Positions 12,872-45,552 of a DNA stretch of 64,000 nt are shown here, in pieces. Source of the DNA: an uncultured delta proteobacterium (GTDB taxonomy: Bacteria; Desulfobacterota; Binatia; UBA9968); NCBI GenBank assembly GCA_963745035.1, contig CAVUVW010000021.1, positions 160,001-224,000 of the forward strand. The letters run 5' to 3'. The position numbers and the translations under genes are program-made. Position 1 is the stretch's first letter. Each line of letters starts with the position of its first letter. The notes beneath the pieces were generated by a model that saw only the letters and a list, made by a program, of their open reading frames with translations, did not search any database and had not been told where the DNA came from.

Positions 12872-13927
12872 TCAGTAGTTGAGTTGCTGGCCGGCTTTTT
12901 TCTTCTGGACGTTGTCGAGAACCTTGGCGCCAAGCGCGACGTCGGCGACGCCTTGGCCGGCGTTGTTTTTGTAGAAGGTGATCTGATCGGCCTTGGTGCG
13001 GCCTTCCTTTTTGCCGGCGAGGATCTCGCCGATCTCGATCAACTGTTCCCATCGGATGACGCCGCGCTCCACCGGGTCGAAGATATCGGCCTGCTCGTCC
13101 TGCCGCGCTTGCTCGACGGAGACGATGCCGTGCACGTCGCTTCGCGCCAGAGTGGCATCGTCGATCTCGCGCCGCTTGGCGGCGGCAAAGCCGTTTTTCA
13201 CCAGGCCGACATTGCTGCCGACGATGGTGGTGACGTGCTGGCCGGGTTTGAGCCAGTTGCCGTCGAACACCGGCACGCTGGAATTGGTCGCGGTCAAAAT
13301 AATATCGACGCCGCGCACGGCCTCTTCGGCCGATGCCACCGGCTCGATATCGAGCTGGGTGAGCGGCGCCATTTCCTCGGCGAATTTTTTCCGGTTGTCC
13401 GGATTGCGGCTGTAGACTTTGACCTTCTTCAGTTTTCGCACCTGCATCAGTGCCAGCAGATGGTTCTTGGCCTGGCCGGCGGCGCCGAACAGGCCGAGGC
13501 TCGTGGCGTCGGGCCGCGCCAAGAGATCGGTGCCGACGGCGCTGGTCGCGGCCGTGCGCAGGCCGGTGACGGCGATATTGTCGGGCAGCTCGGCGCAGGT
13601 GATCTCGCCGACGATGATGCCTTTGAGCTCGCCTTCGGCGGAATCGTAGAGCACGATCACCGGATGATTGAGGCGCGGGTAGACCTGCTCGGAGGCCATC
13701 GGCTTTACCCATTCGCAGTGCGTCATCAAGCCGGTGGCCTTGGCCGCCGGCACGCCGCCCTGGTGCACGCTCACGCGCACGCCGGTGGGAATGTGGATCC
13801 GGCGGCGCGGCGCGTTGAGAAGCGCATTCTCGCCCCACTCGCGAAATCCGAGGCGCACCGCTTCGACGGCCTCCGACATGCTGACGATGCCGCGGATTTC
13901 TTGTGGGCTCACAAGCAAAGGTTGCAT
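12872..13927 (-). CDS. Ornithine cyclodeaminase/mu-crystallin family protein
   Basis: TGLRTAA, GLFGAAGQA, DIILTATNS and YKNNAGQGVADVA motifs. Confidence 0.88.
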   Translation of the reverse strand: MQPLLVSPQEIRGIVSMSEAVEAVRLGFREWGENALLNAPRRRIHIPTGVRVSVHQGGVPAAKATGLMTHCEWVKPMASEQVYPRLNHPVIVLYDSAEGELKGIIVGEITCAELPDNIAVTGLRTAATSAVGTDLLARPDATSLGLFGAAGQAKNHLLALMQVRKLKKVKVYSRNPDNRKKFAEEMAPLTQLDIEPVASAEEAVRGVDIILTATNSSVPVFDGNWLKPGQHVTTIVGSNVGLVKNGFAAAKRREIDDATLARSDVHGIVSVEQARQDEQADIFDPVERGVIRWEQLIEIGEILAGKKEGRTKADQITFYKNNAGQGVADVALGAKVLDNVQKKKAGQQLNY

Positions 13928-13940
13928 GCGAACGTCTCTT

Positions 13941-14501
13941 TCAGATGGTCGGCGCGACCCGCGGCCGCGCGATCAGGTCTTCGCCCCAGCGCTTGAGATT
14001 GGGATAGCGATCGTCGATGGTCACTTCGTAGCGCTCGCGACGCGTGTAAAACGGAATGAAGCTCACGTCCGCGAGCGAGTACTCGCCGACCAGATATTTC
14101 TTGCCGGACATTTCTTTATCCAACGCGGCAAGATGTTGCTCCATGCGCTGCTGCGCTTTCTCGGGCTCGCGCTTGTGCGTGATGTCGGACGCCGCGGCGT
14201 GGAGCCGGGTGCTCATGTAATCGACCCAGATGCGCGCCTTGGCGCGAAGCAGGAGATCGGCGGGCATCAGCCGGACCTGAGGAAACTTCTCGTCCAAATA
14301 TTCGTCGATGATCGCCGACTCATAAATCACGCCCTCGCCGTCGACCAAAACGGGAACTTTGCCGTAAGGATTGCGCTGCACGAGGTCGGAAGGCTTGTTC
14401 TTCAAATCCACTTCGATGAGCTCGTAGGGAAGTTGCTTTTCCGCCAGGACAATCCTTGTCCTGTGGGCGTAGGGTCAGGTGTGGCTGGAATAAAGCTTCA
14501 T
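13941..14501 (-). CDS. Glutathione S-transferase family protein, predicted selenoprotein (Sec9, UPYA)
   Basis: ATG at 14501 with AAGGAGG RBS reads MKLYSSHT-TGA-PYAHRTRIVLAEK and continues in frame to NPYGKVPVL...IYESAII. The TGA (14475-14477) sits at the CPY catalytic position. Confidence 0.82.
14445..14463 (-). promoter_or_regulatory. Bacterial SECIS-like hairpin of the Sec-GST
   Basis: mRNA reads UGA + 11 nt + CAGGACAA-GGA-UUGUCCUG: a perfect 8-bp stem with a G-first loop 19 nt after the UGA. Confidence 0.75.
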
Positions 14502-14533
14502 GGCGTGCCCTCCTTCTCGGTTTGAATATCAAC

Positions 14534-14650
14534 TGGGTTCAAATCGTTCAAGTCGTTCAAATAGTTCAAATCGTCAGATGAAGAAGGCGAACGCGTCTTT
14601 TCTTCTTACACGGCTTGAACGTTTTGAACGGCTTGAACTACTTGAACCCA
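14534..14650. repeat. Inverted-repeat element with arms of 9-nt tandem units (GTTCAANNN / NNNTTGAAC)
   Basis: GTTCAA at 14537, 14546, 14555, 14564; TTGAAC at 14615, 14624, 14633, 14642; ends TGGGTTCAA and TTGAACCCA are complementary. Confidence 0.85.
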
Positions 14651-14652
14651 CT

Positions 14653-15460
14653 CTATCGAGTGCGTGCGGTTAGTCGTTCCTGCAGCGTGTCGCCGACGAT
14701 ATTCAAGGCCAAAACGGTAAACATCAAAGCGAGTCCGGGATAGGTCGTGAGATGCGGCGCGACGAGCAAGAATTGCCGGCCATCGTTCAACATGGAGCCC
14801 CACGACGGCGCCGGCGGCTCCACGCCGAGGCCGAGAAAGCTCAGGCTGCCTTCGGCGACGATGGCCGCCGCCAAGCCGAACGTCGCTTGAATCAGCAACG
14901 GCGCGAGCAGATTGGGGATCAGATGGCGGATGATGATTCGCCTCGGTGAACAGCCGAGGCCGCGTGCCGCCTGCACGAACTCGCGCTCGCGGAGCGACAA
15001 GATTTCGCCGCGGACCAGGCGCGCGTAGCCGGTCCAGCCGATCAGGCAGAGCGCCAGGATCACATGATCGAGTCCGGGACCGAGCACGGCCGTCAGCGCT
15101 ATGGCGAGCAGGATGCCGGGAAACGCCATCAAAATATCGACCAGGCGCATGAGCAGGAGATCGAGCCAGCCGCCGAAATAGCCGGACAATGAGCCGGCGG
15201 CGACCCCGAGCGAGAGCGAAATGAGCACGGTGGCGATTCCCGTGAGCAGCGAAATCCGCCCGCCATAGATTGTCCGGCTCAAGACGTCGCGGCCCGAGTT
15301 TATCAGTGCCGAGCGGATGATCGGCGGAATAGGCGAGCAGATCTTTGTCGAGATCTTGGCGGAGCGGATCGTGGGGCGCGATCAGCGGCGCGAACAGCGC
15401 GGCAACGGCGAGCGCAAGCAGGACCGCCAGGCCGGCGTAGAACCACACTCTATTCGCCAA
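14653..15460 (-). CDS. Peptide/nickel ABC transporter permease, DppC-like (frameshift near 15295)
   Basis: HPLGTDKLG, then SRTIYGGRISL; EAA loop REFVQAARGLG; LSFLGLG. Confidence 0.88.
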
Positions 15461-16373
15461 AGCGCACCCGCGGATCGACCAGCTTGTAGAGCAGGTCGGT
15501 GAAAAAATTGATCAACACGTAGGACGCGGCGATCACCAGCACGCAGCCCTGGACGAGCGGATAGTCGCGCGTCTGGATCGCCTGGATGGTCAGCCGGCCG
15601 ATGCCCGGCCAGCTAAAAATCGTCTCGGTGATCAACGAGCCGGCGAGCAGACCGCCGAATTGCAAGCTCATGATCGTGACCACGGAAAGCAGGGCGTTGC
15701 GCAGCACGTGCTTCACCCACACTTTGGCTTCGCGCAAGCCCTTGGCACGGGCGGTCTGGACAAATTCCTGATGCGCGGCCTCGATCAGGCTCGCGCGCAG
15801 GATGCGCACGAGGATGGCCGCCATGCCGAGCCCGAGTGTGACGGCCGGCAGAAACAGATGGCCGAGACCGCCGCGTCCGGACACCGGCGTCCAGCCGAGC
15901 TGGATCGAAAAGACGATCATCAGGAGCGGGCCGAGCCAGAAGTTGGGCAGCGAGAGCCCGAGCAAGGAAAACGCCAGCGCCGCGCGATCGATCCAACCGC
16001 CACGGTGGAATGCCGCCAGCGCGCCGAGCGGAAACGAAATCAAGATCGCCGCGATCATGGCACAGAGCGCGAGCTGGAAGGTGGCGGGGAAGCGCGCGCC
16101 GATAATTTGCGTCACTCCTGCCGGCTCGTAGAGAGAACGGCCGAGGTCGCCGGCGGCGAGATTCACGAGAAATGACCGGTATTGGGTCAGGAGCGGGCGG
16201 TCAAATCCCAAACTTCGACGCAACGATTCCTTGTCGGCCGCGGTCGCGGTTTCGCCGAGCATGACTTCCACGGGATCGCCGGGGATCAGATGGATCAGCA
16301 GAAATACCAGCGAGACCGCGCCGAGCAGGGTGGGCAGCAACAGTAACAAGCGCCGGATCAAAAATCGCTTCAC
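15450..16373 (-). CDS. Peptide/nickel ABC transporter permease, DppB/NikB-like
   Basis: PGDP, TARAKGL, TETIFSWPGIG and RDYPLVQG motifs. Confidence 0.92.
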   Translation of the reverse strand: MKRFLIRRLLLLLPTLLGAVSLVFLLIHLIPGDPVEVMLGETATAADKESLRRSLGFDRPLLTQYRSFLVNLAAGDLGRSLYEPAGVTQIIGARFPATFQLALCAMIAAILISFPLGALAAFHRGGWIDRAALAFSLLGLSLPNFWLGPLLMIVFSIQLGWTPVSGRGGLGHLFLPAVTLGLGMAAILVRILRASLIEAAHQEFVQTARAKGLREAKVWVKHVLRNALLSVVTIMSLQFGGLLAGSLITETIFSWPGIGRLTIQAIQTRDYPLVQGCVLVIAASYVLINFFTDLLYKLVDPRVRFGE

Positions 16374-16383
16374 GGGCGCGCCG

Positions 16384-17982
16384 CTAGCCGAATGCGGCCT
16401 TCTTGAAGGAAATCAGCTCGCCGTCGGGATAGGGGACGAAACCGCGTAGGTTGGGTTTTTTCACGATCACGTTCTTCCACCACCAGAGCGGCACGTAGGG
16501 CAGATCTTCGGCGAGGAGCCTTTGCACCTGCGCGTAAATTTCTCGGCGCTCTTGCCGATCGACTGTCGCACGCCCCTGGTCGAGCAGGCGGTCGACTTCG
16601 AGATTGCGATAGCGGCCGCGGTTGTCGCCGTTGGGCGGCGTGCTGGAGGAGTGAAAAATCTGATGGTAGATGTCCGGATCTTCGATGCCGACCCATGCGA
16701 GCGAATAGAGATGGAAGTTGCCGCTCTTCACGTCGCTAAAAAAAGTGCCCCATTCGTAGGTGCGCAGCTCGAGCTCGATGCCGACCTGTGATAGCTGCTC
16801 TTTGAGCGCTTCGGCGATGCGCCGGCGGAGGTCGATGTTGGTGGTCTTGAAGGAAAGACGAAAACGCGGGCGCGGTCCGTCGCCGTCGGGATCGATAAAG
16901 CCCGCCTCGTCGAGCAGTTGTTTGGCGCGCGCCCGATCGTAGGGCCAGCGCCGCGCGTTGCCCTCGTAGGCCCAGCTGTGCGGCGAAAGCAGGCCGCTGG
17001 CTTCCGTGGCGATGTTCTTGAGCAGATGGCGGATGATGCTGTCACGATCGATAGCGCAGGCGAGGGCCTGGCGGACTTTCCGGTGGCGCAAGATCGGATG
17101 CGTCAAATTGAATCCGATGTACTGAAACGTCGTGCCGTTTGCCGTCTCCACCCGGGCGCTGGTGTTTTTCTCGAGCCAGGGGAGCATCTCCGGCTCCAGA
17201 TCATTTTGCATGAAGTCGACGGCCCCCTGCTTGAACTCGAGCACCCGCACCAGCGCATCGGGAACAATTTTGAAAACCACACCTGGCAGCGGAGGGCGCC
17301 CCTCCCAGTACTCCGGGTTGGCTTGCAGCGTGACCTTCTCTCCCGATTCCAGCGCTTTTAAACGAAACGGTCCCGAGCCCGGCGGCGGGCGCGGGTTGGA
17401 ATTGCCAGCCTTCGGCGCGCCCGCGGGCACGATGCCGAGAGTGAATTGCTCGATGAAAGGCGCGTGCGGCGCACGCAAGCGAAAGCGCAGTTGGTGAGCG
17501 CCGGTCTGCTCGATGCTCTCGAGCGGCAACAGCGGGCCGCGTTTGGGCGAGAGAGCGGCGGGATCTAAAATCGATTCGTAGGTGTACTTCACATCGGCGG
17601 CGGTGAGGCGCGCGCCGTTGTGAAAAACCGCATCGGCGCGCAGATCGAAATGATAGGTGCGGTCGTCGAGCATGCGCCAATCTACCGCTAGCTCGCGCCG
17701 CAGTTGCGATCGTTCGTCGTAGCGCAGCAGCGAATTGTAGATCAGATTACCGATGCGCACGGAGTTGGCGTCGGTCGAGTAGCGCGGATCAAGCTGGAGC
17801 GGGTTGCTCTCGATGCCGGCGACCAGATAGCCGGGCGGGCGCCCGTCGGACGAGCGGCAACCGGAACAAGCGGCGAGCAATAGGGCGACGGAATACAATC
17901 GCAGAGATCGGTGGCGGCGCAACGACAAAAACTCTCGCGCGAAAATTTTCCTGAAAATAGCCGGTTTGCTGGACTCGGTCAA
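16384..17982 (-). CDS. ABC transporter substrate-binding lipoprotein, family 5 (DppA/NikA-like); start uncertain
   Basis: LDPR, FHNGARLTAADVKYT, GSGPF and VRQALACAIDR motifs. Confidence 0.88.
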   Translation of the reverse strand: MTESSKPAIFRKIFAREFLSLRRHRSLRLYSVALLLAACSGCRSSDGRPPGYLVAGIESNPLQLDPRYSTDANSVRIGNLIYNSLLRYDERSQLRRELAVDWRMLDDRTYHFDLRADAVFHNGARLTAADVKYTYESILDPAALSPKRGPLLPLESIEQTGAHQLRFRLRAPHAPFIEQFTLGIVPAGAPKAGNSNPRPPPGSGPFRLKALESGEKVTLQANPEYWEGRPPLPGVVFKIVPDALVRVLEFKQGAVDFMQNDLEPEMLPWLEKNTSARVETANGTTFQYIGFNLTHPILRHRKVRQALACAIDRDSIIRHLLKNIATEASGLLSPHSWAYEGNARRWPYDRARAKQLLDEAGFIDPDGDGPRPRFRLSFKTTNIDLRRRIAEALKEQLSQVGIELELRTYEWGTFFSDVKSGNFHLYSLAWVGIEDPDIYHQIFHSSSTPPNGDNRGRYRNLEVDRLLDQGRATVDRQERREIYAQVQRLLAEDLPYVPLWWWKNVIVKKPNLRGFVPYPDGELISFKKAAFG

Positions 17983-19403: not shown

Positions 19404-20222
19404 ATGGACGCGGTGTTATTCACGCTCACGGCGGTCGCGTATCTAGTTGCCGCCGGGAGTTTTTTCCTCTATCTGTTCCGCGGCGAGACCGCCGCGCGTC
19501 TGCCGACGGCGCTGTTGTTCGCCGGCTTTCTGGTTCATTCGTGCGCCTTGCTCAGCCGTTTTCTCCAGGACGGTTTCGCCGCGGTGGCGGTGATGGGCTA
19601 TGCGCTGCTGTTTTACGGCTGGCTGATGGTCGGCATCTATTTGCTCGTCCAACTCAGATACCGCCTCGCCATCCTCGGCGGCATCATCGCGCCCTTGGCG
19701 TTTCTCATGACGCTGTCGCCGTTGGTCGTCGGCCGCGGCGCGGGCGAAATTCCCCCGGCGCTGCAAACCTACTGGCTGCCGGTGCACGTGACGCTCGCGT
19801 TTCTCGGCAACGCCGTGCTCGCGCTGGCGTTCGGCGTAAGCCTGATCTATGTGCTGCAAGAGCGCCATCTCAAGAATAAGAAAATGACCGCGTTAATGAA
19901 GCGCTTTCCGCCGCTGGAGTCCTTGGATCGGCTCAACTACGTGCTCCTGGTCTGGGGCTTTCCTTTGATGACCTTGGGAATTCTCACCGGCAGCCTGTGG
20001 GCGGGCATTCACTGGGGCAATTACTGGTCGTGGGATCCGCGGCAGATTTCCTCGGCCGCCGCGTGGCTGCTCTACGGCGCGCTCCTGCACGCGCGCCTCA
20101 CCGCGGGCTTGCGCGGCAAGAAGGCGGCGCTCCTCACCATGTTCGGCTTCTGCGTCGTGCTCGGTTATTTTCTTTGGGGAGAGGCGCTCTTTCCCAGCCG
20201 GCATGGGGGCCGGTTCGAATAG
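19404..20222 (+). CDS. ccsA: Cytochrome c biogenesis CcsA/CcsB (HemX-like) membrane protein
   Basis: WLPVHV motif and WWD-type motif GSLWAGIHWGNYWSWDPR; lies upstream of hemA. Confidence 0.8.
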   Translation: MDAVLFTLTAVAYLVAAGSFFLYLFRGETAARLPTALLFAGFLVHSCALLSRFLQDGFAAVAVMGYALLFYGWLMVGIYLLVQLRYRLAILGGIIAPLAFLMTLSPLVVGRGAGEIPPALQTYWLPVHVTLAFLGNAVLALAFGVSLIYVLQERHLKNKKMTALMKRFPPLESLDRLNYVLLVWGFPLMTLGILTGSLWAGIHWGNYWSWDPRQISSAAAWLLYGALLHARLTAGLRGKKAALLTMFGFCVVLGYFLWGEALFPSRHGGRFE

Positions 20223-20224
20223 GC

Positions 20225-21511
20225 GTGCGCAAGGACATCGTCATCGTCGGGCTGAACCACCGCAGCGCGCCCATCGATGTGCGCGAAGGCGTCGCATTCG
20301 AGCATTCCTACGTTCGCACTGCGCTCACGCGCCTGCGCCAGTATCCGGCCATGGAAGAAGGCGTCATTCTATCGACGTGCAACCGGGTGGAAGTGGTTGC
20401 GGCGTCGGGCGACTGCCGGGCGGCTGGCGATGCGATCGGCGCCTTTCTTGACGGCCAGCGAGCCGAGCGCCACGGCGCGGCGCTCGACGGTCATATTTAT
20501 CGCCATCAAGGAAGCGAAGCGGTGCGCCATTTGTTTCGCGTCGCCGCCAGCCTCGACTCCATGGTCGTCGGCGAGCCGCAGATCCTCGGCCAGCTCAAGC
20601 AATACTATGACGCGGCGCAGGAGGCGGGCACAGTGGGGACGATTCTCCACCGGCTGTTTCATCGCGCATTCTCGGTCGCCAAACGGGTGCGCACCGAAAC
20701 CGGCATCGGCGCCGGCGCGGTATCGGTCAGCTCGGTGGCGGTCGATCTCGCCAAGCGCATCTTCGACCGCTTCGACGACAAGACCGTGATGCTGATCGGT
20801 GCCGGCAAGATGGGCGACCTGATGGCGCGCTACCTGCGGGGCAGCGGCGTGCAGAGCATGATGGTCACCAACCGCACCTTCGAAAGCGCGGTCGAGCTGG
20901 CGGAAAAAATTCAAGGCAGCCCGATTCGCTTCGAAGACTTCCCACGCTATCTCAAGATGGCCGATCTGGTCATCGGCTGTGCCGGAGCGCCGGACGCGGT
21001 GATCGACGCGCCGACGGTGGAGCGGGTGCTGCGCGAGCGCAAGCAGAAGGCGATGTTTTTCATCGATATCGGTGACCGGCGTAACTTCGACGCCAAGATC
21101 AACGATCTCGACAACGTCTATCTCTACAACATCGACGACTTGAAGAGCGTCGCCGAGGACAACCGGCAGGGACGCGCGAGCGAAGCGGAGAAGGCCGAAG
21201 AGATCGTCCAGGATGAAGTGCAGAGTTTTCTGCGCTGGATGGGGTCGCTGGATCAGGCGCCGACGATCGCCGCTTTGCGCGGTCGCTTCGAAGAGATTCG
21301 CCGCCAGGAAATCGAAAGATCGCTGGGCCGCGGCCTGAAAGACCTGTCGGCGGAGCAGCGCGCCGCGCTCGACGATCTCACCACCGCGATGATCAACAAG
21401 CTGCTGCACGGTCCGATCTCCCAGCTCAAGAAGAGTTCGCCGGACGAGGACGGGGACACGACGCTTTACGTCGCCGCGCTCAAGCGGCTCTTCGATCTGG
21501 AGGGCAAGTGA
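20225..21511 (+). CDS. hemA: Glutamyl-tRNA reductase
   Basis: VGLNHRSAP, LSTCNRVE, SLDSMVVGEPQILGQ and GAGKMG motifs. Confidence 0.96.
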   Translation: MRKDIVIVGLNHRSAPIDVREGVAFEHSYVRTALTRLRQYPAMEEGVILSTCNRVEVVAASGDCRAAGDAIGAFLDGQRAERHGAALDGHIYRHQGSEAVRHLFRVAASLDSMVVGEPQILGQLKQYYDAAQEAGTVGTILHRLFHRAFSVAKRVRTETGIGAGAVSVSSVAVDLAKRIFDRFDDKTVMLIGAGKMGDLMARYLRGSGVQSMMVTNRTFESAVELAEKIQGSPIRFEDFPRYLKMADLVIGCAGAPDAVIDAPTVERVLRERKQKAMFFIDIGDRRNFDAKINDLDNVYLYNIDDLKSVAEDNRQGRASEAEKAEEIVQDEVQSFLRWMGSLDQAPTIAALRGRFEEIRRQEIERSLGRGLKDLSAEQRAALDDLTTAMINKLLHGPISQLKKSSPDEDGDTTLYVAALKRLFDLEGK

Positions 21512-22419
21512 CGCGCCTGCGCATCGGTACGCGCGGCAGCGCCCTGGCGCTGGCGCAGGCAAACTGGGTGAGGGCGCAGCTTATGGAAAACCAGCCGGAG
21601 CTCGAAATCGAGCTCCGCATCATCAAGACCAGCGGCGACCGGTCGCTGGACACGCCGATTGCGGAGCTCGGCGGCAAGGGAGTCTTCACCAAAGAAATCG
21701 AGGAGGCGTTGCTCGCCGATGAAATCGATCTGGCGGTGCACTCGATGAAGGATTTGCCGCCGAAACTGCCGGACGGGCTGGTGATCGCCGCCGCGCCCAA
21801 AAGAGAAGATCCGCGCGACGTGCTGGTGACGCGGGGAAAGAGCGCTCTTGATGATCTTTGCGCCGGGACAAAGATCGGCACGGGCAGCCTACGCCGCCGC
21901 GCGCAACTGCTGCACGCCCGTCCCGATCTCGCCATCGTGCCGATCCGCGGCAACATCGATACCCGGCTGAAAAAGCTCGACGGAGGCCAAGTCGAGGGTC
22001 TGGTGATGGCGGCGGCGGGCTTGAAGCGCATCGGCCGTGAGGATCGCATCGGTGAATATCTCGCGGATGAGATTTGCGTAAGCGCAGCGGCGCAAGGCGC
22101 CCTCGGCATCGAGACCCGGGAGCAAAGTCCGGCGCGCGCTTATCTGGGGTTTTTGCATGACGAGGAGACATGGTCTGAAGTTGCCGCGGAGCGGGCCTTG
22201 CTCGATTGTCTCGGCGGCGGTTGTCATGTGCCGATCGGCGCACGCGCCCGGCGCAGCGCGGATAAGCTCAGCCTCGTCGGCATCGTCGCAAGCGCTGACG
22301 GGCGGCGTCTTTGCCGGAGCGAGCTCGCCGGCGCTGCCGGCGCGGCGGTGGAGCTGGGCCGCCGCGTGGCCGAGGAATTATTGCAGCAAGGAGCGGCGGA
22401 GCTGGTTGCCGCCGGGTGA
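21508..22419 (+). CDS. hemC: Hydroxymethylbilane synthase
   Basis: IGTRGSALALAQ, KGVFTKEIE, AVHSMKD and GGCHVP motifs. Confidence 0.96.
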   Translation: MTRLRIGTRGSALALAQANWVRAQLMENQPELEIELRIIKTSGDRSLDTPIAELGGKGVFTKEIEEALLADEIDLAVHSMKDLPPKLPDGLVIAAAPKREDPRDVLVTRGKSALDDLCAGTKIGTGSLRRRAQLLHARPDLAIVPIRGNIDTRLKKLDGGQVEGLVMAAAGLKRIGREDRIGEYLADEICVSAAAQGALGIETREQSPARAYLGFLHDEETWSEVAAERALLDCLGGGCHVPIGARARRSADKLSLVGIVASADGRRLCRSELAGAAGAAVELGRRVAEELLQQGAAELVAAG

Positions 22420-22435
22420 TTTTTTGAGCGGATCG

Positions 22436-23270
22436 GTGGAGCAAGACAACAGAACGGCGGGCGAAGACGCGCCGGAAAAACCGCTGGCGGGCGTGCGCAT
22501 CGTCATCACCCGGGCCGGAGCACAGGCCTCCGGGCTGGCGCGGCAGATCGAGAGCGCCGGCGGCGCGGTCATCGAGTTTCCGACCATCGAGATCCAGCCG
22601 CCCGAAGATTTTGCCGCTTTCGATGCCGCGATCGAGAATATCGAGCAATACGACTGGCTGATTTTTACCAGCGTCAACAGCGTCGCGCCGTTCCTTGCGC
22701 GCCTGCGCCGCGCGGGAAAAGTCGTCGGCGCGCTCGCTTCGCTTCACGTCGGCGCCATCGGTCCGGAAACCGCGCAGCGGCTGTCGTCGGCCGGCATCAC
22801 GGTTTCGCTGGTGCCCGAGCGCTATCAAGCCGAAGGTATCCTCGACGCCGTCAAACCCGAGCTGATGAAAGGCAAGCGCGTTTTGATTCCCCGCGCCGCC
22901 GAAGCGCGGGAAGTCCTGCCGGAAACGCTGCGCTCCTGGGGCGCCGCGGTCGAGGTCGTGGTCGCGTATCGCACCGCGCTTGCGCGAGTGGACGTCGCGC
23001 CGCTGGCCGATTTGCTGCGCGGGCGCGCAATCGACGCCATCACGTTCACGAGCTCGAGCACGGTGAAAAACTTTGTTCGTCTTTTCGACGGCAAGAGTTT
23101 GGCGGAGATTGCTGCGGCGGAGCGCGATCGCCTGCATCGGGCCGATCACCGCGCGCACCGTGGAAGAGGCCGGCGGGCGGCCGGCGATCGTCGCCGAAGA
23201 ATTTACCATCGCGGGGCTCACCCGCGCGATCGTCGCGCATTTTCGATCGGGAACGGTGCGCCGGACATGA
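22436..23270 (+). CDS. hemD: Uroporphyrinogen-III synthase (frameshift near 23120)
   Basis: [23 protein letters not shown] and FTSSSTV; CIGPITA appears in the shifted frame. Confidence 0.88.
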
Positions 23271-23304
23271 GCCCGCGCGCGGAATTGACAGGCTGGAGCG
23301 CTCT

Positions 23305-24288
23305 ATGAATTTTCCGATCTATCGGCCGAGACGCTTACGCCGCAACGAGAAGCTGAGAAACCTGATCCGCGAAACGACCTTGGAGCCGCGGAATTTTATC
23401 TACCCGCTGTTCGTCGGTCCGGGCAAGGACAAAGCGCAGCCGGTTTCTTCGATGCCCGGAATCGCGCAGCTCACCGTGGATCGCGTCGTGGGCGAATGCC
23501 GCGAAGTCAGCGCGCTCGGCATTCCGGCGGTGATCTTGTTCGGCATCCCGGAGCGCAAAGATGCGGCGGGGAGCGAAGCCTACGACGATCGCGGCATCGT
23601 GCAGCAGGCGATTCGCGCCATCAAAGAAACGGTCCCCGAATTGCTCGTCGTCACCGACGTTTGTCTGTGCGAGTACACCGATCACGGCCACTGCGGCGTG
23701 GTCCGAAACGGCGACGTCGATAACGACGCGACCTTGGAGCTGCTGGCGCGGGAGGCGCTGTCGCACGCGCGCGCCGGCGCCGATATCGTGGCGCCGTCCG
23801 ACATGATGGACGGGCGCGTTGCCGCGATCCGCAAGATCCTCGATGAGAATGATTTTGCCGGGACGCCGATCATGGCCTACGCGGCAAAATACGCCTCGGG
23901 TTTTTACGGTCCGTTTCGCGAAGCCGCCGAGTCCACGCCGCAATTCGGCGATCGCCGCTCCTATCAGATGGATCCCGCCAACGCCGAAGAAGCCCTGCGC
24001 GAAGTCGAGCTCGATATCCGCGAAGGAGCCGACATCGTCATGGTCAAGCCCGCGCTCGCGTATCTCGACGTGATCTACCGCGTGAAGCAGAAATTCGGCT
24101 ATCCGCTCGCCGCCTACAACGTGAGCGGCGAGTACTCGATGATCAAGGCGGCGGGTCAAAACGGCTGGATCGACGAGCCGCGCATCATGATGGAAGTTCT
24201 CTACGCCATCCGGCGCGCCGGCGCGGATATGGTGATCAGCTATTTCGCCAAGGAAGCCGCGCGGCTGATTGCGGACGGTCGAGGATAG
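23305..24288 (+). CDS. hemB: Porphobilinogen synthase
   Basis: [29 protein letters not shown] and MVKPAL motifs. Confidence 0.97.
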
Positions 24289-27623: not shown

Positions 27624-30063
27624 TTATAAAGCCGCGCCCGGTTCAAGAACCAAATCGCCGCCGTGCTCCGCGCCGGTCTCCGCGGCCGTCAGGCTGATTG
27701 TTTTCCCTTCCGTCCACAGCCGGGTCTGATCCGCATAGTGAGTGGACCAGGGATGACCCGACTGCCCCGAGGGCAGGACAAAGTCGGAGCTTTGGCGAGC
27801 GCCCATCTCCGCGATGAAGCGCATCGAAGCGCCGACCGTTTGCGTGTAGGGGTTGGAATGGCGATAGAAGCCCAAGTTGACGGTCATGCCGTCGCCCGGC
27901 GCCGGCAGCGGGCCGATGGCCAGCAGGTTCTTGAGCACGGGAACGCGACCGAGCGAATGATTCAAATACAAGCTGTGAACCTTGCCCCAACGCCATCGTC
28001 CGAATATCTTCGCCCAACGCCTGCGCCAGCTCGGCGCACGCTTCGCGCAGCGCGAGCCTGACCAATGCGGCGCGCGAACGTTTGGCAAACCAGGGAGAGT
28101 CCGGGTCGGCCAGGATCCGATCGGTCGGCGCGATGCACTGATTCAAAATCTCGACGTAAGCGGGAAAAAGCTCTTCGCCCAAATCGGGAACGAGGAGATT
28201 AAAGAGCAGACGATGATGGAACACGTGAAAGATCGCCGCGGGTACGCTTGCCGTAGAGCAGCGCCCGTCCCAGGAAAGCAGAGCGTCCGCCGCATCGGCC
28301 AGCGCGGGAAGCTCGGCGCCGATTTGGGTCAGCTCGGCCTTGAGCGCGGCGATCAGCTCGCGGGCGTGGAGCGAGAGATCGTCGAGCTGCATGGCGCCGA
28401 GATCCTCGACCGTATGTTGCTCGCGCGACTGCAACAACTCGCCGATGCGGCGAAAGCGGTAGGGCGGTTCGAAGAAGTGAGAGAGATAATGCGGATAAGC
28501 GCCGTCGGCGATGCGGTTGTTGGCGGTGGCGATCCATCCCTCCGGCGGATTGTAAATGCGCGGCAGCTCGTCGAAGGAAATATAGCCGCGCCACTCGTTT
28601 TCTTCGCTCCATCCCGCCAGCGGCCGCAAAGTCGGAACGTGGGCGCGGCGCGGAATTTTTCCCGCCAGCGCATAGCCTATGTTGCCGGCGTGGTCGGCGT
28701 AGACGAAGTTCAAGCTCGGCGCGCCGTGGTGGCGCAGGCTTTCGCGAAACTCGCGCCAATCGGATGCGCGGTTGACGCCGTAAAGACCGCGCATCTCCTC
28801 GCCGGGCTCGTGCGCCGTCCAGCGCACGGACAAGACTTCTTCGCCGCGCCGCGGCATTTCGCTGAAGTCGCTGATCACTGGTCCGTGGCGCGTGCGGCGG
28901 ACGAGCCGCTCGATCGGCGCCGACCTCCTCACGGCGATCACTTCTCGGGTTATTTCGAATCTGCGCCACTCGCTGCCGACCAAGTAGCGGTCGGAGTCGA
29001 CGCGGTGCAGGCGCTCGCGGTAAATCTCGACGTCGTCGCAGACCGCGGCGGTGATGCCCCAGGCGATAGCGCGATTGCGGCCGATCTGAATCAGCGGGCA
29101 GCCGGCGATCGATGCGCCGCAGACTTCGTAGCCGTCCGCCGCGCCTGAGCGCTCCGCGCTTTTGAGATGCATCAAGTACCAGATCGACGGCAGGGTCATG
29201 CGTAGATGCGGATCGTTGCACAAGATCGCGCCGCCGCTTCGAGAGCGGCCTGGGGCAATTGCCCAGCTATTGCTGCCGCCGCCCGCGGGATGCCAATCTC
29301 CCGCCAGCCGCCATGCCGGTTGAGAAACGCCACACGGCTTGCGCTTGATCCCACAGTGGCGCGGGCGATAACCGGCGCGCCGGCCGGATAGCCGGGAAAC
29401 AGCGCTTGAAGCTTTGCCGGTTGGTCGCCGAGCTTCTCGGCGACGGCAAAAAAATTCAGGCGGCTGTAAAGTGCGGTCGAAAGCAGCAGCGCCAGACCCT
29501 TGCCGATGGTCAGCGTATCCTCAGCGCGCCAGGGCTCGGGTTGGTGGCGCAGCAGGCGAAACTCCCAGGGGAGCTTTTTGCCGCATTGCTCGATATAGCG
29601 GTTGACGCCGGCGCAGTAGGCGTCGAGCCGGGCGCGGAGATCTTCGCGAAAGAAGCGCGAGCGAACCCTGCGCGGCGACACGGATGCCGAGGAGCCGCAT
29701 GAAATAATCGAGGTCGGCGGAAGTGCGGCGGCGAAACTGCACCGATAGATCCTGCCAGGGCAACGGCAAGTCGCCGAAAATCTCCGCCATGCGCCCGCCG
29801 AGAAAGCGGCGGCTCAGCTCCATTTGCCAGAGCCGCTCCCGGGCGTGCAAAAATCCCTGGACAAAAAAAAGATCGGCTTCGTTGGCGGCCGACACCCGCG
29901 GGATGGCGAAGCGATCAAAGCGCACGGTCGCCGTCTGCTTGAGTCCCCGTAGGACGAGCTTGCCGCGATAAGTCGGCAGGGCCGGTTTGTCGAGACGGCG
30001 AAGATACGGGCGAAGGAGCGCCGCGCAGAGGGATGCGAAAAACCCGCTCCTGGGCAACTCCAT
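27624..30063 (-). CDS. Penicillin acylase family Ntn-hydrolase (several frameshifts)
   Basis: ARERLWQMELSRR, GSNSW nucleophile, NDPHL, TRHGPVIS and GQSG motifs across frames. Confidence 0.85.
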
Positions 30064-30095: not shown

Positions 30096-30698
30096 TCAGA
30101 GCACGGCTTTGACGGAGGGGCGCGCTTTCATTCTTTCCATATATTTGCCGAGACGGGGCAGCGACGGGTCGGGCAGAACGCCGAAGCCTTCCAGCCGGGT
30201 GAAGCGCGGCAGCAAGTCGGCGTCGACCAGCGAAAACTCGCCGGTGAGGTAGGGGTTGTCGCCGATCTCGGATTCGAACCGCTGCAGCAGCTTTTTGATC
30301 TCGCCTTTGGCGCCGTCGATCACCTGCTGGTTTTGCTCCTTTGCGTCTTTCATGAGCTCCATGCGAAGTTTTTGATACGGGCCGTCGAAGTGCGCCATGC
30401 CGTAGTCGACCAGGATGCGCGCGTTGGCTTTTTTCGCGGGCTCCTTCGGCAGCAGCGGCGGGTTGGGATACTTTTCCTCGAGGTATTCATTGATAATACA
30501 GGACTCGTAGAGCACGGTGTCGTCATCGGTCAACACCGGGACCTTGCCGTACGGATTGAGTTTCAGGTAGTCCGGCGTCTTTTGTTCGTGCGCGCGCAAG
30601 TCCACCGGAACGATTTCGTACTGCAGGTTTTTTTCCGCGAGAACTATTTTGACCCGCTGGCAGTTGGGCGACGATTTGAAATCATAAAGCTTGATCAT
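30096..30698 (-). CDS. Glutathione S-transferase family protein (SPNC type)
   Basis: KLYDFKSSPNCQRVKIVLAEK, NPYGKVPVL and LYESCII motifs. Confidence 0.92.
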   Translation of the reverse strand: MIKLYDFKSSPNCQRVKIVLAEKNLQYEIVPVDLRAHEQKTPDYLKLNPYGKVPVLTDDDTVLYESCIINEYLEEKYPNPPLLPKEPAKKANARILVDYGMAHFDGPYQKLRMELMKDAKEQNQQVIDGAKGEIKKLLQRFESEIGDNPYLTGEFSLVDADLLPRFTRLEGFGVLPDPSLPRLGKYMERMKARPSVKAVL

Positions 30699-30837: not shown

Positions 30838-31365
30838 TTGTCCTTGAATTCCACTGAAGCGGCGCACGCTATTGTCGGCGCGCTGCGCGGCGCCGGCATC
30901 GATCTCGTCGCCACGCTGCCCGACATCAATCTCGCGGAGCTCTTGCGCGCGGTCGAAGAGTCGCGCGGGCTGACGCACGTGCCGGTCTGCCGCGAAGAAG
31001 AGGGCATCGGCATTTGCGCGGGCGCCTATCTCGTCGGTAAGAAGTGCGCGGCGATCATGCAGAACGGCGGCTTTTTCAACAGCAACAATGCAATCGTCAG
31101 CACCTTGCTGCAATACCAGATTCCGTTGCTGCTGTTGATTTACTATGCCGGCGACGTCGGCGACCGCACTTTCAGCACCACCGGGAGCTTGACCGAGCCG
31201 GTGCTGCAAGCTTTGGGAATCCGTTATTACGTCGCGCGCGAAACCGAAGACGCAGTGGAATTGATTCGCCGCGCGCAAGTCTTGACCGAGGACGCGAAGC
31301 GCCCGGTCGCGTTGCTCTTGACCAAGGAGTTCCTCGGCCGCCGTTCAGCGCTCAAGGGGCTGTAG
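30838..31365 (+). CDS. ThDP-dependent decarboxylase alpha subunit (sulfopyruvate decarboxylase ComD-like)
   Basis: REEEGIGICAGAYL and MQNGG motifs. Confidence 0.85.
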   Translation: MSLNSTEAAHAIVGALRGAGIDLVATLPDINLAELLRAVEESRGLTHVPVCREEEGIGICAGAYLVGKKCAAIMQNGGFFNSNNAIVSTLLQYQIPLLLLIYYAGDVGDRTFSTTGSLTEPVLQALGIRYYVARETEDAVELIRRAQVLTEDAKRPVALLLTKEFLGRRSALKGL

Positions 31366-31402
31366 CGAAGGAGAATTTTTTCCGCCTGGATTCGTCGGAG
31401 CC

Positions 31403-32008
31403 ATGCAGAGATTTGAATGTCTGAAAATCCTTGCCCCGTTGTCCGGCGATGCGCTCGCCGTGAGCTCGGCCGGGGCGGTGACCCTCGAATGGCATGCGCT
31501 GCGGCCGGGGGACGGCAACTTTCGGGTGCGCACCCTCGGGCTCTGCTCCTCGATCGCTCTCGGCATGGCGCTCGGCTTGGCGGAGCGCAGGGTCATCGCG
31601 CTCGACGGCGACGGCTCGCTGCTGATGAATCTGTGCTCGCTCCCGACCATCGCGCGCATGAAGCCGAAAAATCTGCTGCACGTGGTTTTCGACAACGAAG
31701 TCTATGAAGCTTCGGGGAGCAAAAAGACCGCCACCGGCGCGGGCGCGGATCTGGTCGGGCTGGCGCGCGCCGCCGGCATCGAAAATGCCCATTGGGCAAA
31801 CTCGCTCGAAGCGTTTGCGCGCGCCGCAGAGCGAGCCCTCGTGAGCGATGGGCCGTCTTTCATCGGCGTCAAGGTCGGCGTCGAGCGCGCCGCGGTCGCG
31901 CCCTATCCGATCGACGAAGTGGAAAACAAGTATCGCTTCATCCGCTACGTCGAAAAGAGCGCCAAGATCGATATTCTCAAAACCAGCTTGCCGGCGAGCT
32001 ACGATTGA
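31403..32008 (+). CDS. ThDP-dependent decarboxylase beta subunit (ComE-like)
   Basis: DGDGSLLMNL...DNEVYEASG ThDP-binding motif. Confidence 0.85.
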   Translation: MQRFECLKILAPLSGDALAVSSAGAVTLEWHALRPGDGNFRVRTLGLCSSIALGMALGLAERRVIALDGDGSLLMNLCSLPTIARMKPKNLLHVVFDNEVYEASGSKKTATGAGADLVGLARAAGIENAHWANSLEAFARAAERALVSDGPSFIGVKVGVERAAVAPYPIDEVENKYRFIRYVEKSAKIDILKTSLPASYD

Positions 32009-37319: not shown

Positions 37320-37488
37320 GTTCAAGTCGTTCAAATAGTTCGAGCCGTTCGAAGAAATCCGCTTTCTCGCCGGAATGACCAAGGAGTCGACCGATTCGTT
37401 CTCAAATTCGCGGAAGCTCGCAGATTGGAGCCGACGGTTGTTTAGCCTCAATCCGATAAACGTTTTGAACAGCTTGAACGATTTGAAC
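37320..37488. repeat. Second 9-nt-unit inverted-repeat element
   Basis: GTTC(A/G)A at 37320, 37329, 37338, 37347; TTGAAC at 37465, 37474, 37483; between convergent genes. Confidence 0.8.
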
Positions 37489-37496
37489 GTGCCAAG

Positions 37497-38917
37497 TCAG
37501 TCTTCGATCCCGTAATCCCTCCACCGGCTCGCGACTAAATCCAGATGCTCCTTCGGCGGCAGTGAAATCGCCGGGTAGGCGTGCTTGCGCGTGGCATCGA
37601 TCGCCACGCGCGAACCGACGTAACGGGTCGGGTGATGCTGCGGCACGTCTGCCGGCGCCTGGGATGGGTCGAGGCCGACCGCTTGGACGTCCCTTTCGAT
37701 GTAGATGTCCTTGTCCGGCCGGACGTGCCAGCTTAGCGCCCAATCGACGGCGAAGTCGTCCCAGATGTCGATATCGTCATCGACGACCACTGTAAATTTT
37801 CCAAAGCCGGTGCGCATCGACCACGCGCCGTACATGAGCTGGCGCACCTGGCCGTCGAACTGCTTTTTGAGCGAGATGACAAGATAAGCGCCGCTGCCGC
37901 CGGCTTCCTTGAGGCGCACGTCTTTGATCGGAATGCGCAGAATGTCTCGCACGTGCTTGATCAGCGGCCACTCGCGGCCGACGGCGCGGATGCAGCTCGA
38001 CTCCGACGGCGGCATCTGACTGATGAACGCCTGATACCATGGGTTGTTGCGAAAGGTCATGCACGTGATGTTGAAGAACGGCTCATTGCCCGCCGGACCC
38101 ATATAGCCGGTATATTCGCCGAAGGGTCCTTCCGGTTCGATGCTGTTGGCCGGGATCTCGCCTTCCAAAACGATTTCCGCGCTCGCGGGAACTTCCAGCG
38201 GCACGGTCTCGCACGGCACCAAGTCCACCGCCTCGCCGCGCAGCGCGCCGGCCACGGCGAACTCGTCCAACGTCTCCGACATCTTGGAAACCGACACGTA
38301 GCCGATGGTGGGATCGGCGCCGATCACGACGGCCATCGGCGTCGGCTGGTTCTTCGCGTTGTTTTTGAGAATATGCCAGGAGGCGTCCTGGCGCTTGCCG
38401 ATCAGCAGACCGGTTTTGTTCGGCCCTTTGACCTGCATTCGATACGTTCCGACGTTGCGCACGCCGGTCTCGGGATCTTTCGTGATCAAGTAGGGCGAGG
38501 TGAAAAACGGCCCCGGATCTTCGCCCACCGTCCAAATCGGCACCGGCAGCTTGGTGATGTCCACGTCCTTGCCGTGCAGGATGTTGTCTTTGCACGGCGC
38601 GTTTTTACCATGCGCGGCGCGATCGGATTGCCGAGCGCGTGGTCCCATTTGCGGTTGATGCCTTCGATCGAGTCGGTTTCCAGCCCGAGCGCGTAGATCT
38701 CCCGCGATGCGCCGAGCACGCCGGCGACCACCGGTATTTTGAAGCCCTTGACGTTTTCGAACATCAGCGCCGGCCGCTTGTGCGGCGCGATCTTTTTGAA
38801 CAACTGCCGGCAGACTGCGGCGATCTCCCAGTCCTTGTCGACTTCCTTGGTGACGCGCTTGAGTTTGCCTTTTTCTTCGAGGGTCGCGACGTAGTCGCGC
38901 AAATCGCGGTAAGCCAT
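37497..38917 (-). CDS. UbiD-family decarboxylase (frameshift near 38605)
   Basis: YRDLRDY, RNVGTYRMQV, EGPFGEYTGY, VVDDDID and IDATRK motifs. Confidence 0.9.
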
Positions 38918-39081
38918 GAATCCTCCGCCGATCACGAAAAAATTTTTCGTATACTAAGCAGAAATACTTTACATATCAACGATCGCGTTGTGAAAGTCTG
39001 CTGAGCAGCGAGTTGACCGCACGGACGCGATTGTCCGGTGAAGAGAAAAAACGCGAAAATCGCGCGCGACGGACGCGCGGT

Positions 39082-44442: not shown

Positions 44443-45552
44443 ATGAAACTTACTTTTCCTGTCATAAAGGGAAACATGGGCGGGCGACAGTACTATTCGC
44501 TCCTGGTTCCGCTCTCAGAGATTCCTCATTTATTCAAATTCAACGACTGGACAGGCTGTACTCCCGAATTGCAGGCGCAAAGGGTTCTGAATAAGGCGAG
44601 GGTTCCAGACATCTCAGAATACATACTCGATAATGAGAACGGATACTTGTTCTCGTCGATCACTGCTTCGTATTCGTGTCCGGTAAAGTTCGTTCCATCA
44701 GCAGATAACGCCGAAGTTGGAACTTTAGAGATGGAGCTCGAAAACCTGGAGTTTATCATCAACGATGGCCAGCATCGGTGCGCGGCGATTGCTGCGGCAC
44801 TCAAGGAGAATCCCGCGCTTGGGAAGGAAAAAATCTCGGTGCTTCTCTTTGAGACGGAAAGTTTGGAACGGCTTCAGCAGATGTTCTCGGATTTAAATCG
44901 ATTCGTGCAGCAAACATCAAAATCGTTAGGCATGCTCTATGATCGTCGAGATAATCTTTCTGCGCTCACAATGGAGCTGGCCGACCAGGTCGACGTATTC
45001 CGAGACATGGTGGACAAAGAGAAGGTGACGATTCCGCGGAGGTCCCCCAAACTTTTTACCATCTCCGCTTTATATGAAGCGAACGAAGAATTGCTGGGTA
45101 AAAAAATCGCTGAACAGGGATCATCGGTCTACGCAGAAATTCTCAGCAGGGCTGTCGACTACTGGACGGAGCTTTCGAAGGTCATTGGCGACTGGCAGAA
45201 AGTCAAGAATGGAGAACTTGGCGCTTCCGACCTCCGGCAAGAGAAGATCAATACTCATGCGGTGGTTTTGCGCGCGCTGGGAGGCGTCGGAAGGATTTTG
45301 TTCGAAAAATATCCCGGCAACTGGCGGGAGAAACTCAAGCTCCTAGAACGGCTTGATTGGCGGAAATCCGTGGATGGTAGCGCGAATCCTCTCTGGGATG
45401 CCGTATGCATCACAGCAGGCTCAGTTGTCTCCAATAGGCAGGCGCGAGCAGCTACGTTGGCAGTCTTGTTGAGAGAAATAGGCGAATCGCCAAATGGAAA
45501 AATGGCACACAAGGAATTTGCGGAGGTGACTAGTGCGCAAGCGGCTCAGTAA
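44443..45552 (+). CDS. dndB: DndB-like DGQHR-domain protein (orphan)
   Basis: AQRVLNKARVPDI, YLFSSITAS, INDGQHRCAAI, QQMFSDLNR, LYDRRD and KLFTISALY motifs. Confidence 0.88.
   Translation: MKLTFPVIKGNMGGRQYYSLLVPLSEIPHLFKFNDWTGCTPELQAQRVLNKARVPDISEYILDNENGYLFSSITASYSCPVKFVPSADNAEVGTLEMELENLEFIINDGQHRCAAIAAALKENPALGKEKISVLLFETESLERLQQMFSDLNRFVQQTSKSLGMLYDRRDNLSALTMELADQVDVFRDMVDKEKVTIPRRSPKLFTISALYEANEELLGKKIAEQGSSVYAEILSRAVDYWTELSKVIGDWQKVKNGELGASDLRQEKINTHAVVLRALGGVGRILFEKYPGNWREKLKLLERLDWRKSVDGSANPLWDAVCITAGSVVSNRQARAATLAVLLREIGESPNGKMAHKEFAEVTSAQAAQ

Follow-up and report, generated by a model that had tools for sequence, protein, structure and literature searches.

A probable selenocysteine codon and a conserved SECIS-like hairpin in a glutathione S-transferase gene of Candidatus Binatia

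How is an in-frame TGA at codon 9 of a glutathione S-transferase (GST) gene read in an uncultured delta proteobacterium of the Binatia? The gene lies on the minus strand of a 64,000-nucleotide (nt) stretch of contig CAVUVW010000021.1 (assembly GCA_963745035.1, positions 160,001 to 224,000), which was analysed as a whole and is called the window here. The standard open reading frame (ORF) list holds only 13941..14411, with a GTG start, so the gene is truncated there, as a sequence-only reading of the window had recognized. That reading had also proposed a good ribosome-binding site (RBS), an ATG at 14501 and an unbroken frame through the TGA, and all three are present. An AAGGAGG motif precedes the start codon (ATG 14501–14499; Table 1), codons 1–8 encode MKLYSSHT, and after the TGA PYAHRTRIVLAEK follows in the unchanged frame, the next stop being only the TGA at 13943–13941. 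GGAGG also stands 5′ of the start in related loci whose upstream sequences were inspected. Decoding of the TGA as selenocysteine (Sec, U) gives a protein of 186 residues in which U occurs once, at position 9. From the sequence comparisons that follow, we conclude that codon 9 is very probably recoded as Sec; that Sec9 carries out a specific glutathione-dependent redox chemistry is a further claim, which we hold with moderate confidence.

A contig search for related genes gave 489 confirmed stretches, the best 80 of which (L001–L080; 57–87% protein identity to the window GST) were analysed. They come mostly from metagenome-assembled genomes (MAGs) labelled Candidatus Binatia or 'delta proteobacterium'; taxon labels are given as deposited and are partly inconsistent. 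Counts over 80 TGA genes refer to 79 of these loci plus the window, and counts over 81 loci to all 80 plus the window. Of the 80 related loci, 79 have TGA at the codon aligned to codon 9; the exception, L017, has TGT and shares the gene neighbourhood of the Sec loci. As judged from these alignments, the Sec form is near-universal in the clade, which is made up mostly of Candidatus Binatia MAGs. This conservation bears on whether the TGA arose through an error in sequencing or assembly, or through recent inactivation of a TGC or TGT Cys codon, which would make the gene an artefact or a pseudogene. The window does contain genes that are apparently split by frameshifts, with a penicillin amidase spread over four ORFs, UbiD over two and a DppC-like permease over two frames. 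An error or inactivation is nevertheless already contradicted by the conservation of the TGA, which 79 of 80 independent assemblies from other species share together with the conserved hairpin, and the remainder of the gene is intact. We regard this explanation as barely conceivable.

The sequence on either side of the TGA is conserved as protein. Across the 80 TGA genes, the amino acids of codons 1–8 and 10–30 are kept and third positions vary, the third-position entropy being 1.90 bits at Leu3, 1.64 at Ala12, 1.43 at Pro10 and 1.3–1.6 at other invariant four-fold residues. Conservation of the peptide with synonymous change on both sides of the TGA indicates that both sides are translated in one frame. 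An alternative is that the UGA ends an 8-residue leader peptide and that the functional protein is shorter and starts downstream, for example at GTG 14411. Standard ORF calling yields just such a shortened form, as do the databases: a protein search gave 1642 matches, and among the best 120 of these, 118 are annotated as starting past the TGA position and are 136–168 amino acids (aa) long. The starts of these shortened entries are, however, scattered, at V31, at L29, or at M or L near residues 19 to 24, which points to the behaviour of gene callers after a stop and to no conserved start. Codons 10–30, in which synonymous change is free outside the hairpin, encode helix α1 and strand β2 of the thioredoxin fold in a model with a mean predicted local distance difference test (pLDDT) score of 96, and a product begun at residue 31 would have neither β1 and α1 nor the catalytic residue. 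A leader peptide is therefore exceedingly unlikely to account for the TGA.

The TGA lies exactly where Cys-type GSTs have CPY or CPF, as the sequence-only reading had stated, and the alignment of homologs that it called for brings out a Sec/Cys pair. Besides the TGT of L017, Cys is found at this site in two full-length database proteins, P0003 (74% identity) and P0022 (70%), both of which read CPYAHRTR, and the relatives in the PDB read TCPF. A maximum-likelihood tree was computed for 83 rows after masking of the Sec/Cys site; on it, the three Cys rows need two changes, both nested among Sec rows. The assembly of L017 (DAIRFP01) also carries a Sec paralog, L061, of a second paralog type and with both TGA and hairpin, which indicates that the Sec-to-Cys change was gene-specific and that the TGA genes of the family were not abandoned. 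Seven assemblies have two copies of the GST. A second branch of the family, with N termini such as LRLLSYGPU and MKLYSYQPU, is found in different neighbourhoods.

A separate observation concerns the MAGs that carry labels of other phyla, namely L024 and L064 (both DASPXM01, Verrucomicrobiia), L010 (Chloroflexota), L063 (Acidiferrales) and L080 (Eisenbacteria). Some of their GST genes are nearly identical to Binatia ones, and very short branches join L024 with L006 and L008, and L064 with L060. This near-identity suggests mis-binning or mislabelling of MAGs, not wide transfer of the gene.

The element just 3′ of the UGA had been described as a perfect 8-base-pair (bp) stem with a GGA loop, 11 nt past the TGA, and it reads in this way at 14463–14445: a spacer (14474–14464) is followed by CAGGACAA (14463–14456), GGA (14455–14453) and TTGTCCTG (14452–14445), all three falling within the codons of H13-R-T-R-I-V-L19. 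Its likeness to a selenocysteine insertion sequence (SECIS), claimed from its place directly 3′ of the UGA and the early G in its loop, agrees with the published model of the bacterial SECIS (bSECIS). As set out in the legend to Fig. 2 of PMC13188914, this model has a loop of 3–9 nt, a stem of 4–16 bp, a G in the first two loop positions, a UGA-to-loop distance of 16–37 nt and a minimum free energy (MFE) of −7.5 kcal/mol or lower. The window element lies within all four published limits, with a GGA loop of 3 nt, a stem of 8 bp, a UGA-to-loop distance of 19 nt and an MFE of −9.2 kcal/mol for the hairpin alone (−14.1 kcal/mol for the 45 nt from the UGA). Perfect 8-bp hairpins with loops of 3–9 nt occur 26 times in the window on both strands, 12 of them with a G in the first two loop positions, and the chance that such a hairpin falls at an allowed distance downstream of a given TGA is about 0.2%.

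The significance of the hairpin comes from its conservation across the 80 loci and not from its folding energy. Codons 14–18 are frozen in the 80 TGA genes: codon 14 is AGG in 75 and CGG in the remaining five, codon 15 is ACA in 72, codon 16 is AGG in all 80, codon 17 is ATT or CTT in 78 and codon 18 is GTC in all 80. The freezing runs against codon bias, since AGG and ACA are rare; in the genes of the window, AGG accounts for 4.6% of the codons for Arg, ACA for 6.6% of those for Thr and ATT for 22.5% of those for Ile. Within the 80 TGA GST genes, the share of AGG among the other 1029 Arg codons is 7.1%. The GGA loop is replaced by GGC in the 20 sequences with Leu17. Hairpin energies in the 80 genes average −8.5 kcal/mol (range −9.6 to −6.4), and the isolated 19-nt hairpin of the five relatives with a 6-bp stem has −6.4 kcal/mol. 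Stem positions are paired in 96.5% of cells of the alignment, against 25–50% for controls in which the stem was slid along the sequence. In the Cys ortholog L017 the hairpin has decayed to −0.7 kcal/mol. The L017 protein is 93% identical to that of the Sec gene L014; four of the seven hairpin codons differ between the two genes, and 57 of the 173 codons for identical residues differ synonymously overall.

The check for covariation in the hairpin, which had been proposed with the sequence-only reading, came out in two parts. The stem is conserved as expected, and compensatory changes from A-U are found in L036 (to U-A) and L054 (to G-C). Covariation itself is thin, as the alignment shows mostly invariance, with five of the eight pairs never varying and double changes in only two pairs (three cells). 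The argument for a functional RNA therefore rests on conservation and not on covariation. The outer helix of the MFE fold (columns 12–15 with 36–39) was not counted as part of the element; it is 78% paired, with one pair open in 38 of the 75 distinct sequences.

Besides this scarcity of covariation, several results weigh against a selenoprotein. The folding energy of the 61-nt region is ordinary (z = −0.62), 52 of 200 shuffles folding as well, and the contrast with a relaxed hairpin depends on L017, the one Cys ortholog for which DNA is available. Rfam matched no family in the entire window at gathering thresholds, and at E values up to 10 on 14380–14520 it gave no SECIS family and only a chance snoZ6 match (E 3.7). 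A Pfam scan of the 61 window ORFs found no selA, selB or selD domains, and the corresponding scan of 21 representatives of the flank gene clusters found no SelA, SelB or SelD domains. ARAGORN found no tRNA, tRNA-Sec included, in the window or in L001–L060. Searches for in-frame-TGA genes gave no second selenoprotein gene in the window and none in the flanks of the 80 loci, where 166 candidates were considered. No NCBIfam model reached its cutoff for the Sec-GST, whose proposed function draws on sequence comparison and a structural model. Finally, several window genes are apparently frameshifted and base accuracy is imperfect; this cannot explain the TGA because 79 other assemblies share it.

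The other candidates in the window were, to judge by their context, stops between adjacent genes, frames in the frameshifted amidase or non-coding frames, and the recurrent ones in the flanks were shadow frames on the strand opposite the permease and other conserved genes.

The lack of visible Sec machinery in the window and of an Rfam match for the hairpin would also suit a UGA that is read through without a Sec system, by near-cognate or suppressor decoding as Trp, Cys or Arg, with the hairpin as a generic read-through stimulator. Against such decoding, the sole alternative residue at the site is Cys (L017, P0003 and P0022), which forms the classic Sec/Cys pair at the catalytic position, and the hairpin agrees with the bSECIS model on every count, including the GG that starts its loop and the UGA-to-loop spacing. 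Stop codon usage in 38 window genes is TGA in 14 (the Sec-GST included), TAA in 13 and TAG in 11. TGA is thus an ordinary stop here and the genetic code is not reassigned. We consider read-through without Sec very unlikely, and continue with codon 9 as a probable Sec codon.

The encoded protein belongs to the GST family. Pfam assigns GST_N_3 (E 1.9e-21), GST_N_2, GST_N and GST_C, the PF13409 match scoring 75.1 bits over residues 8–71 with U9 included. Modelling with AlphaFold2 on a 39-row alignment gave a pLDDT of 96.1 and a predicted TM-score (pTM) of 0.91, with strand β1 at residues 2–5 and helix α1 at residues 10–21. U9 stands immediately before α1 and forms its N-cap in the model. A thioredoxin-like N-terminal domain and an all-helical C-terminal domain are supported by Pfam, the AlphaFold2 model and Foldseek, in which many GSTs match with query TM-scores (TMq) of 0.85–0.94. 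Among the 39 sequences, P50, E61 and S62 never vary, whereas V49 is conserved in at least 90%. We take V49-P50 and E61-S62 to be the VP (cis-Pro before β3) and ES (start of α3) motifs of the glutathione site. With both motifs present, and with glutathione-bound structures as the best fold matches, the predicted glutathione site appears intact.

The best sequence matches of known structure are the SspA-like proteins 6v91 and 4qq7 (both Burkholderia) and 4hoj (RegF, Neisseria gonorrhoeae), with E values of 1.6e-35 to 2e-34; in Foldseek they match at TMq 0.89–0.90 with 34–36% identity, and 4hoj and 4qq7 are glutathione-bound according to their entry titles. The Cys of TCPF in all three aligns with U9 of the window protein. 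They differ from it in having Cys in place of Sec and in being 20–25 residues longer. SspA itself was rejected as the identity of the window protein, whose match to NF007016 reaches 109.6 bits, where the cutoff is 314, and covers only profile positions 11–172 of 209. This low equivalog score indicates that the protein is not an SspA ortholog, and no role with RNA polymerase is implied. Tau-class GSTs and human GSTO1 rank after the SspA-like structures in the sequence search. GSTO1 (1eem) matches with E 5.8e-24 (query residues 2–182 to chain residues 25–212, about 30% identity) and lacks a counterpart here for its Omega-specific N-terminal extension. If the start of the alignment is ungapped, U9 is opposite GSTO1 residue 32, which is presumably the catalytic Cys of the CPFA motif. 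The match to the tau GST 2vo4, which we take to be the soybean enzyme of a Ser13-to-Sec study, opens with query residue 9 opposite chain residue 13. By alignment, Sec9 would occupy the position of the catalytic Cys of Omega-class, SspA-like and glutaredoxin-like GSTs, and that of the catalytic Ser of tau GSTs.

A second GST in the window (30099–30698, minus strand, 200 aa) has Ser in place of Sec (KSSPNCQRVKIVL). By its sequence it is a conventional Ser-type paralog.

We propose the following course of synthesis and action for the window protein. Translation would start at ATG 14501, and the UGA at codon 9 would be decoded as Sec. SelB with Sec-tRNA(Sec) is expected to bind the 17–19-nt hairpin when the ribosome arrives at the UGA, and so to insert Sec; the hairpin that would recruit SelB lies inside the α1 codons, for His-Arg-Thr-Arg-Ile-Val-Leu. 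The predicted product is a 186-residue cytosolic selenoenzyme of the GST fold, in which the selenolate of Sec9 would sit beside bound glutathione and cycle via an enzyme-Se-SG selenenylsulfide. This expected chemistry, with a glutathione mixed disulfide or selenenylsulfide, would resemble that of Omega GSTs and glutaredoxin-like thiol transferases. The residue at −3 from Sec in the relatives is Cys in 32 of 80, Tyr in 25, or Ser. The window protein has Ser there (SxxU), so glutathione itself would be its resolving thiol; many relatives are CxxU. The likely reactions are thiol transfer, reduction of disulfides or glutathionylated substrates, and/or reduction of hydroperoxides, and probably not conjugation.

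The choice between a thiol transferase and a peroxidase is a matter of inference. For the soybean tau GST, PMC10812501 reports that changing Ser13 to Sec raised kcat for cumene hydroperoxide 177-fold and kcat/Km 2746-fold, and that H2O2 was also reduced. Since Sec at Ser13 boosts peroxidase activity in the tau enzyme, such activity is plausible here. The engineered seleno-GSTs (tau, zeta and theta, with Sec at the catalytic Ser) have the equivalent active-site position and a glutathione-binding scaffold in common with the window protein. They are artificial enzymes, obtained by chemical modification or by expression in auxotrophs, whereas Sec in the window protein would be genetically encoded and conserved in nature.

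Natural Sec-GSTs have been known mainly from metagenome predictions, a point already made with the sequence-only reading that agrees with the Sargasso, ocean-sampling and review literature. The Sargasso Sea study of 2005 lists GST among its new selenoprotein families, with four sequences (PMC1088965), and its supplement S1 gives the motifs VTuPW and RRuPY/W, in which Sec stands right before Pro-Trp or Pro-Tyr. The Global Ocean Sampling (GOS) survey of 2008 tabulates GST with 12 Sec against 1,036 Cys homologs. Reviews of 2022 and 2026 list 'GST-like' selenoproteins, with MEK9676863.1 and PPR62222.1 as representatives, and the entry in the 2026 review (PMC13188914) treats them as bioinformatic predictions only, none of them characterized. 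GST is not mentioned in deep-Sep (PMC12013277). By titles and the opening lines of abstracts, no paper linking Binatia with selenocysteine was found among those listed.

The window gene is of this published GST-like kind and, in a comparison by eye, of a different subfamily. Both have the GST fold (COG0625/PF13409) and a single Sec, which in the Sargasso sequences stands by eye at the same place at the start of α1; over about 46 residues after Sec, roughly a third are identical by eye between the window protein and one Sargasso sequence. The DNA past the TGA differs from that of the Sargasso genes, and so the SECIS is different. Marine Sec-GSTs are rare beside their Cys homologs, whereas the present clade has Sec in 79 of 80 loci, and it also differs in habitat and lineage, consisting mostly of MAGs of Candidatus Binatia, a soil and groundwater lineage. 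What the clade adds to the known kind is the near-universal Sec, an invariant mini-SECIS and a conserved place behind a peptide importer of the ATP-binding cassette (ABC) type.

The SECIS of Escherichia coli fdhF is likewise a stem-loop in the coding region, directly 3′ of the UGA, and its small apical loop opens with a G. The minimal E. coli SECIS has an 11-nt gap between UGA and hairpin and a hairpin of about 17 nt, as in the window element. There is no sequence similarity between the two, and the window element differs in its GGA or GGC triloop, with no bulged U seen.

Because GST-like selenoproteins have been in print since 2005, the finding is solid and not surprising. The clade offers a clean case for study, with a short gene, a fold predicted at high confidence, a testable minimal SECIS of 17–19 nt and two natural orthologs, L014 with Sec and L017 with Cys. 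According to the review entries on this family, a natural Sec-GST is without biochemical characterization to date. By analogy with the engineered seleno-GSTs, which are strong glutathione peroxidases, the natural enzyme could have an Se-dependent antioxidant or thiol-exchange activity of a new type. The TGA cuts short 118 of the 120 closest database proteins, and the family lacks an NCBIfam model, so the selenoproteome of this widespread soil and groundwater lineage is under-counted.

Table 1. Positions of the Sec-GST gene, its elements and its neighbours in the window
Feature	Position	Strand	Remark
Sec-GST, full coding sequence	13941..14501	minus	186 residues + TGA stop 13943-13941
RBS AAGGAGG	14509..14515	minus	7 nt 5′ of ATG
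In-frame TGA, codon 9, proposed selenocysteine codon	14475..14477	minus	
SECIS-like hairpin CAGGACAA-GGA-TTGTCCTG	14445..14463	minus	begins 11 nt 3′ of TGA
Shortened ORF from ordinary ORF listing	13941..14411	minus	156 aa from GTG
Substrate-binding protein, Opp/Dpp/Nik-type ABC importer	16384-17982	minus	Pfam SBP_bac_5
Permease, ABC importer	15450-16373	minus	Pfam BPD_transp_1
Permease, apparently frameshifted, DppC-like	14653-15460	minus	Pfam BPD_transp_1
Ornithine cyclodeaminase (OCD)/mu-crystallin family gene	12872..13927	minus	OCD_Mu_crystall E 6.7e-44; 14 nt past GST stop
Intergenic inverted repeat, permease-GST gap	14534..14650	.	four 9-nt GTTCAANNN units per arm

The genes around the Sec-GST recur among its relatives (Table 1). 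Importer genes stand directly upstream of the GST on the same strand, SBP_bac_5 in 47 of 81 loci and the two BPD_transp_1 permeases in 50 and 54. The gene after the GST is of the OCD/mu-crystallin family in 28 loci and DUF3105 in 14; near the GST are a CN_hydrolase gene in 26 and an EmrB-like gene of the major facilitator superfamily (MFS) in 17. The binding protein of the window is under the NCBIfam cutoffs for Opp4A, NikA and GsiB. One permease is at the cutoff for Opp2B (351.8 against 350 bits) and scores 305 bits for GsiC. The nitrilase-family gene of the window has 257 bits on 'deaminated glutathione amidase', for which the cutoff is 355. A Pfam scan of ORFs found no ATPase gene in the importer cluster of the window.

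This neighbourhood hints, by way of the families assigned to its genes, at peptide or glutathione-related metabolism, and from it we infer a functional link of the Sec-GST to the transporter. A fuller proposal, which we think rather unlikely, is that in Candidatus Binatia and their relatives the Sec-GST is the dedicated redox component of a conserved module for uptake and catabolism, consisting of the importer (which has no ATPase of its own in the cluster), the GST and an OCD/mu-crystallin-type reductase, with the nitrilase nearby, and that this module processes imported glutathione-like or thiol-conjugated peptides by means of selenium chemistry, the minimal, near-invariant SECIS being held in synonymous sites of HRTRIVL. 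The placing of the SECIS in synonymous sites of α1 would explain how Sec and Cys can interconvert with few changes.

The gap between the permease and GST genes contains an inverted repeat with 41-nt arms that are 83% complementary, and its RNA folds with −53.2 kcal/mol (z −7.6). A consensus scan of this gap gave no promoter and no terminator. In 15 of 81 loci, the 200 nt 5′ of the GST contain at least three copies of GTTCAANNN; the repeat is also present just 5′ of the GST in L001, L003, L005, L007, L012, L016, L025, L030 and L058. A second copy in the window (37320–37488) lies between the convergent CoxS-like and UbiD genes. The repeat looks like a REP-like element or one of the stabilizer or terminator type. 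Further along the window is a haem biosynthesis cluster (19404–24285, plus strand) with genes for a cytochrome c assembly protein, glutamyl-tRNA reductase, porphobilinogen deaminase, uroporphyrinogen-III synthase and 5-aminolaevulinate (ALA) dehydratase; in about 30 relatives, the first genes of this cluster show synteny with the GST locus.

Three window genes are split by apparent frameshifts and are either real pseudogenes or the result of assembly indel errors. The penicillin amidase (27627–30063) extends over four ORFs whose Pfam matches follow one another along the profile. UbiD (37500–38935) has its N-domain in a separate, overlapping ORF, and the DppC-like permease (14653–15460) has a typical N terminus and the BPD_transp_1 domain in different frames. 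At 30838–32005 (plus strand), N- and C-terminal thiamine pyrophosphate (TPP)-binding domains are encoded by two adjacent ORFs of 175 and 201 aa, which could be a natural two-subunit decarboxylase and not a frameshift. Third-position GC content (GC3) of long ORFs falls from about 0.75 to about 0.55 past about 44 kb. The low-GC3 stretch (about 43000–64000) contains a DndB-family gene (44443–45549), ABC transporters, glycosyltransferases and several ORFs without a Pfam match, and may be a horizontally acquired island.

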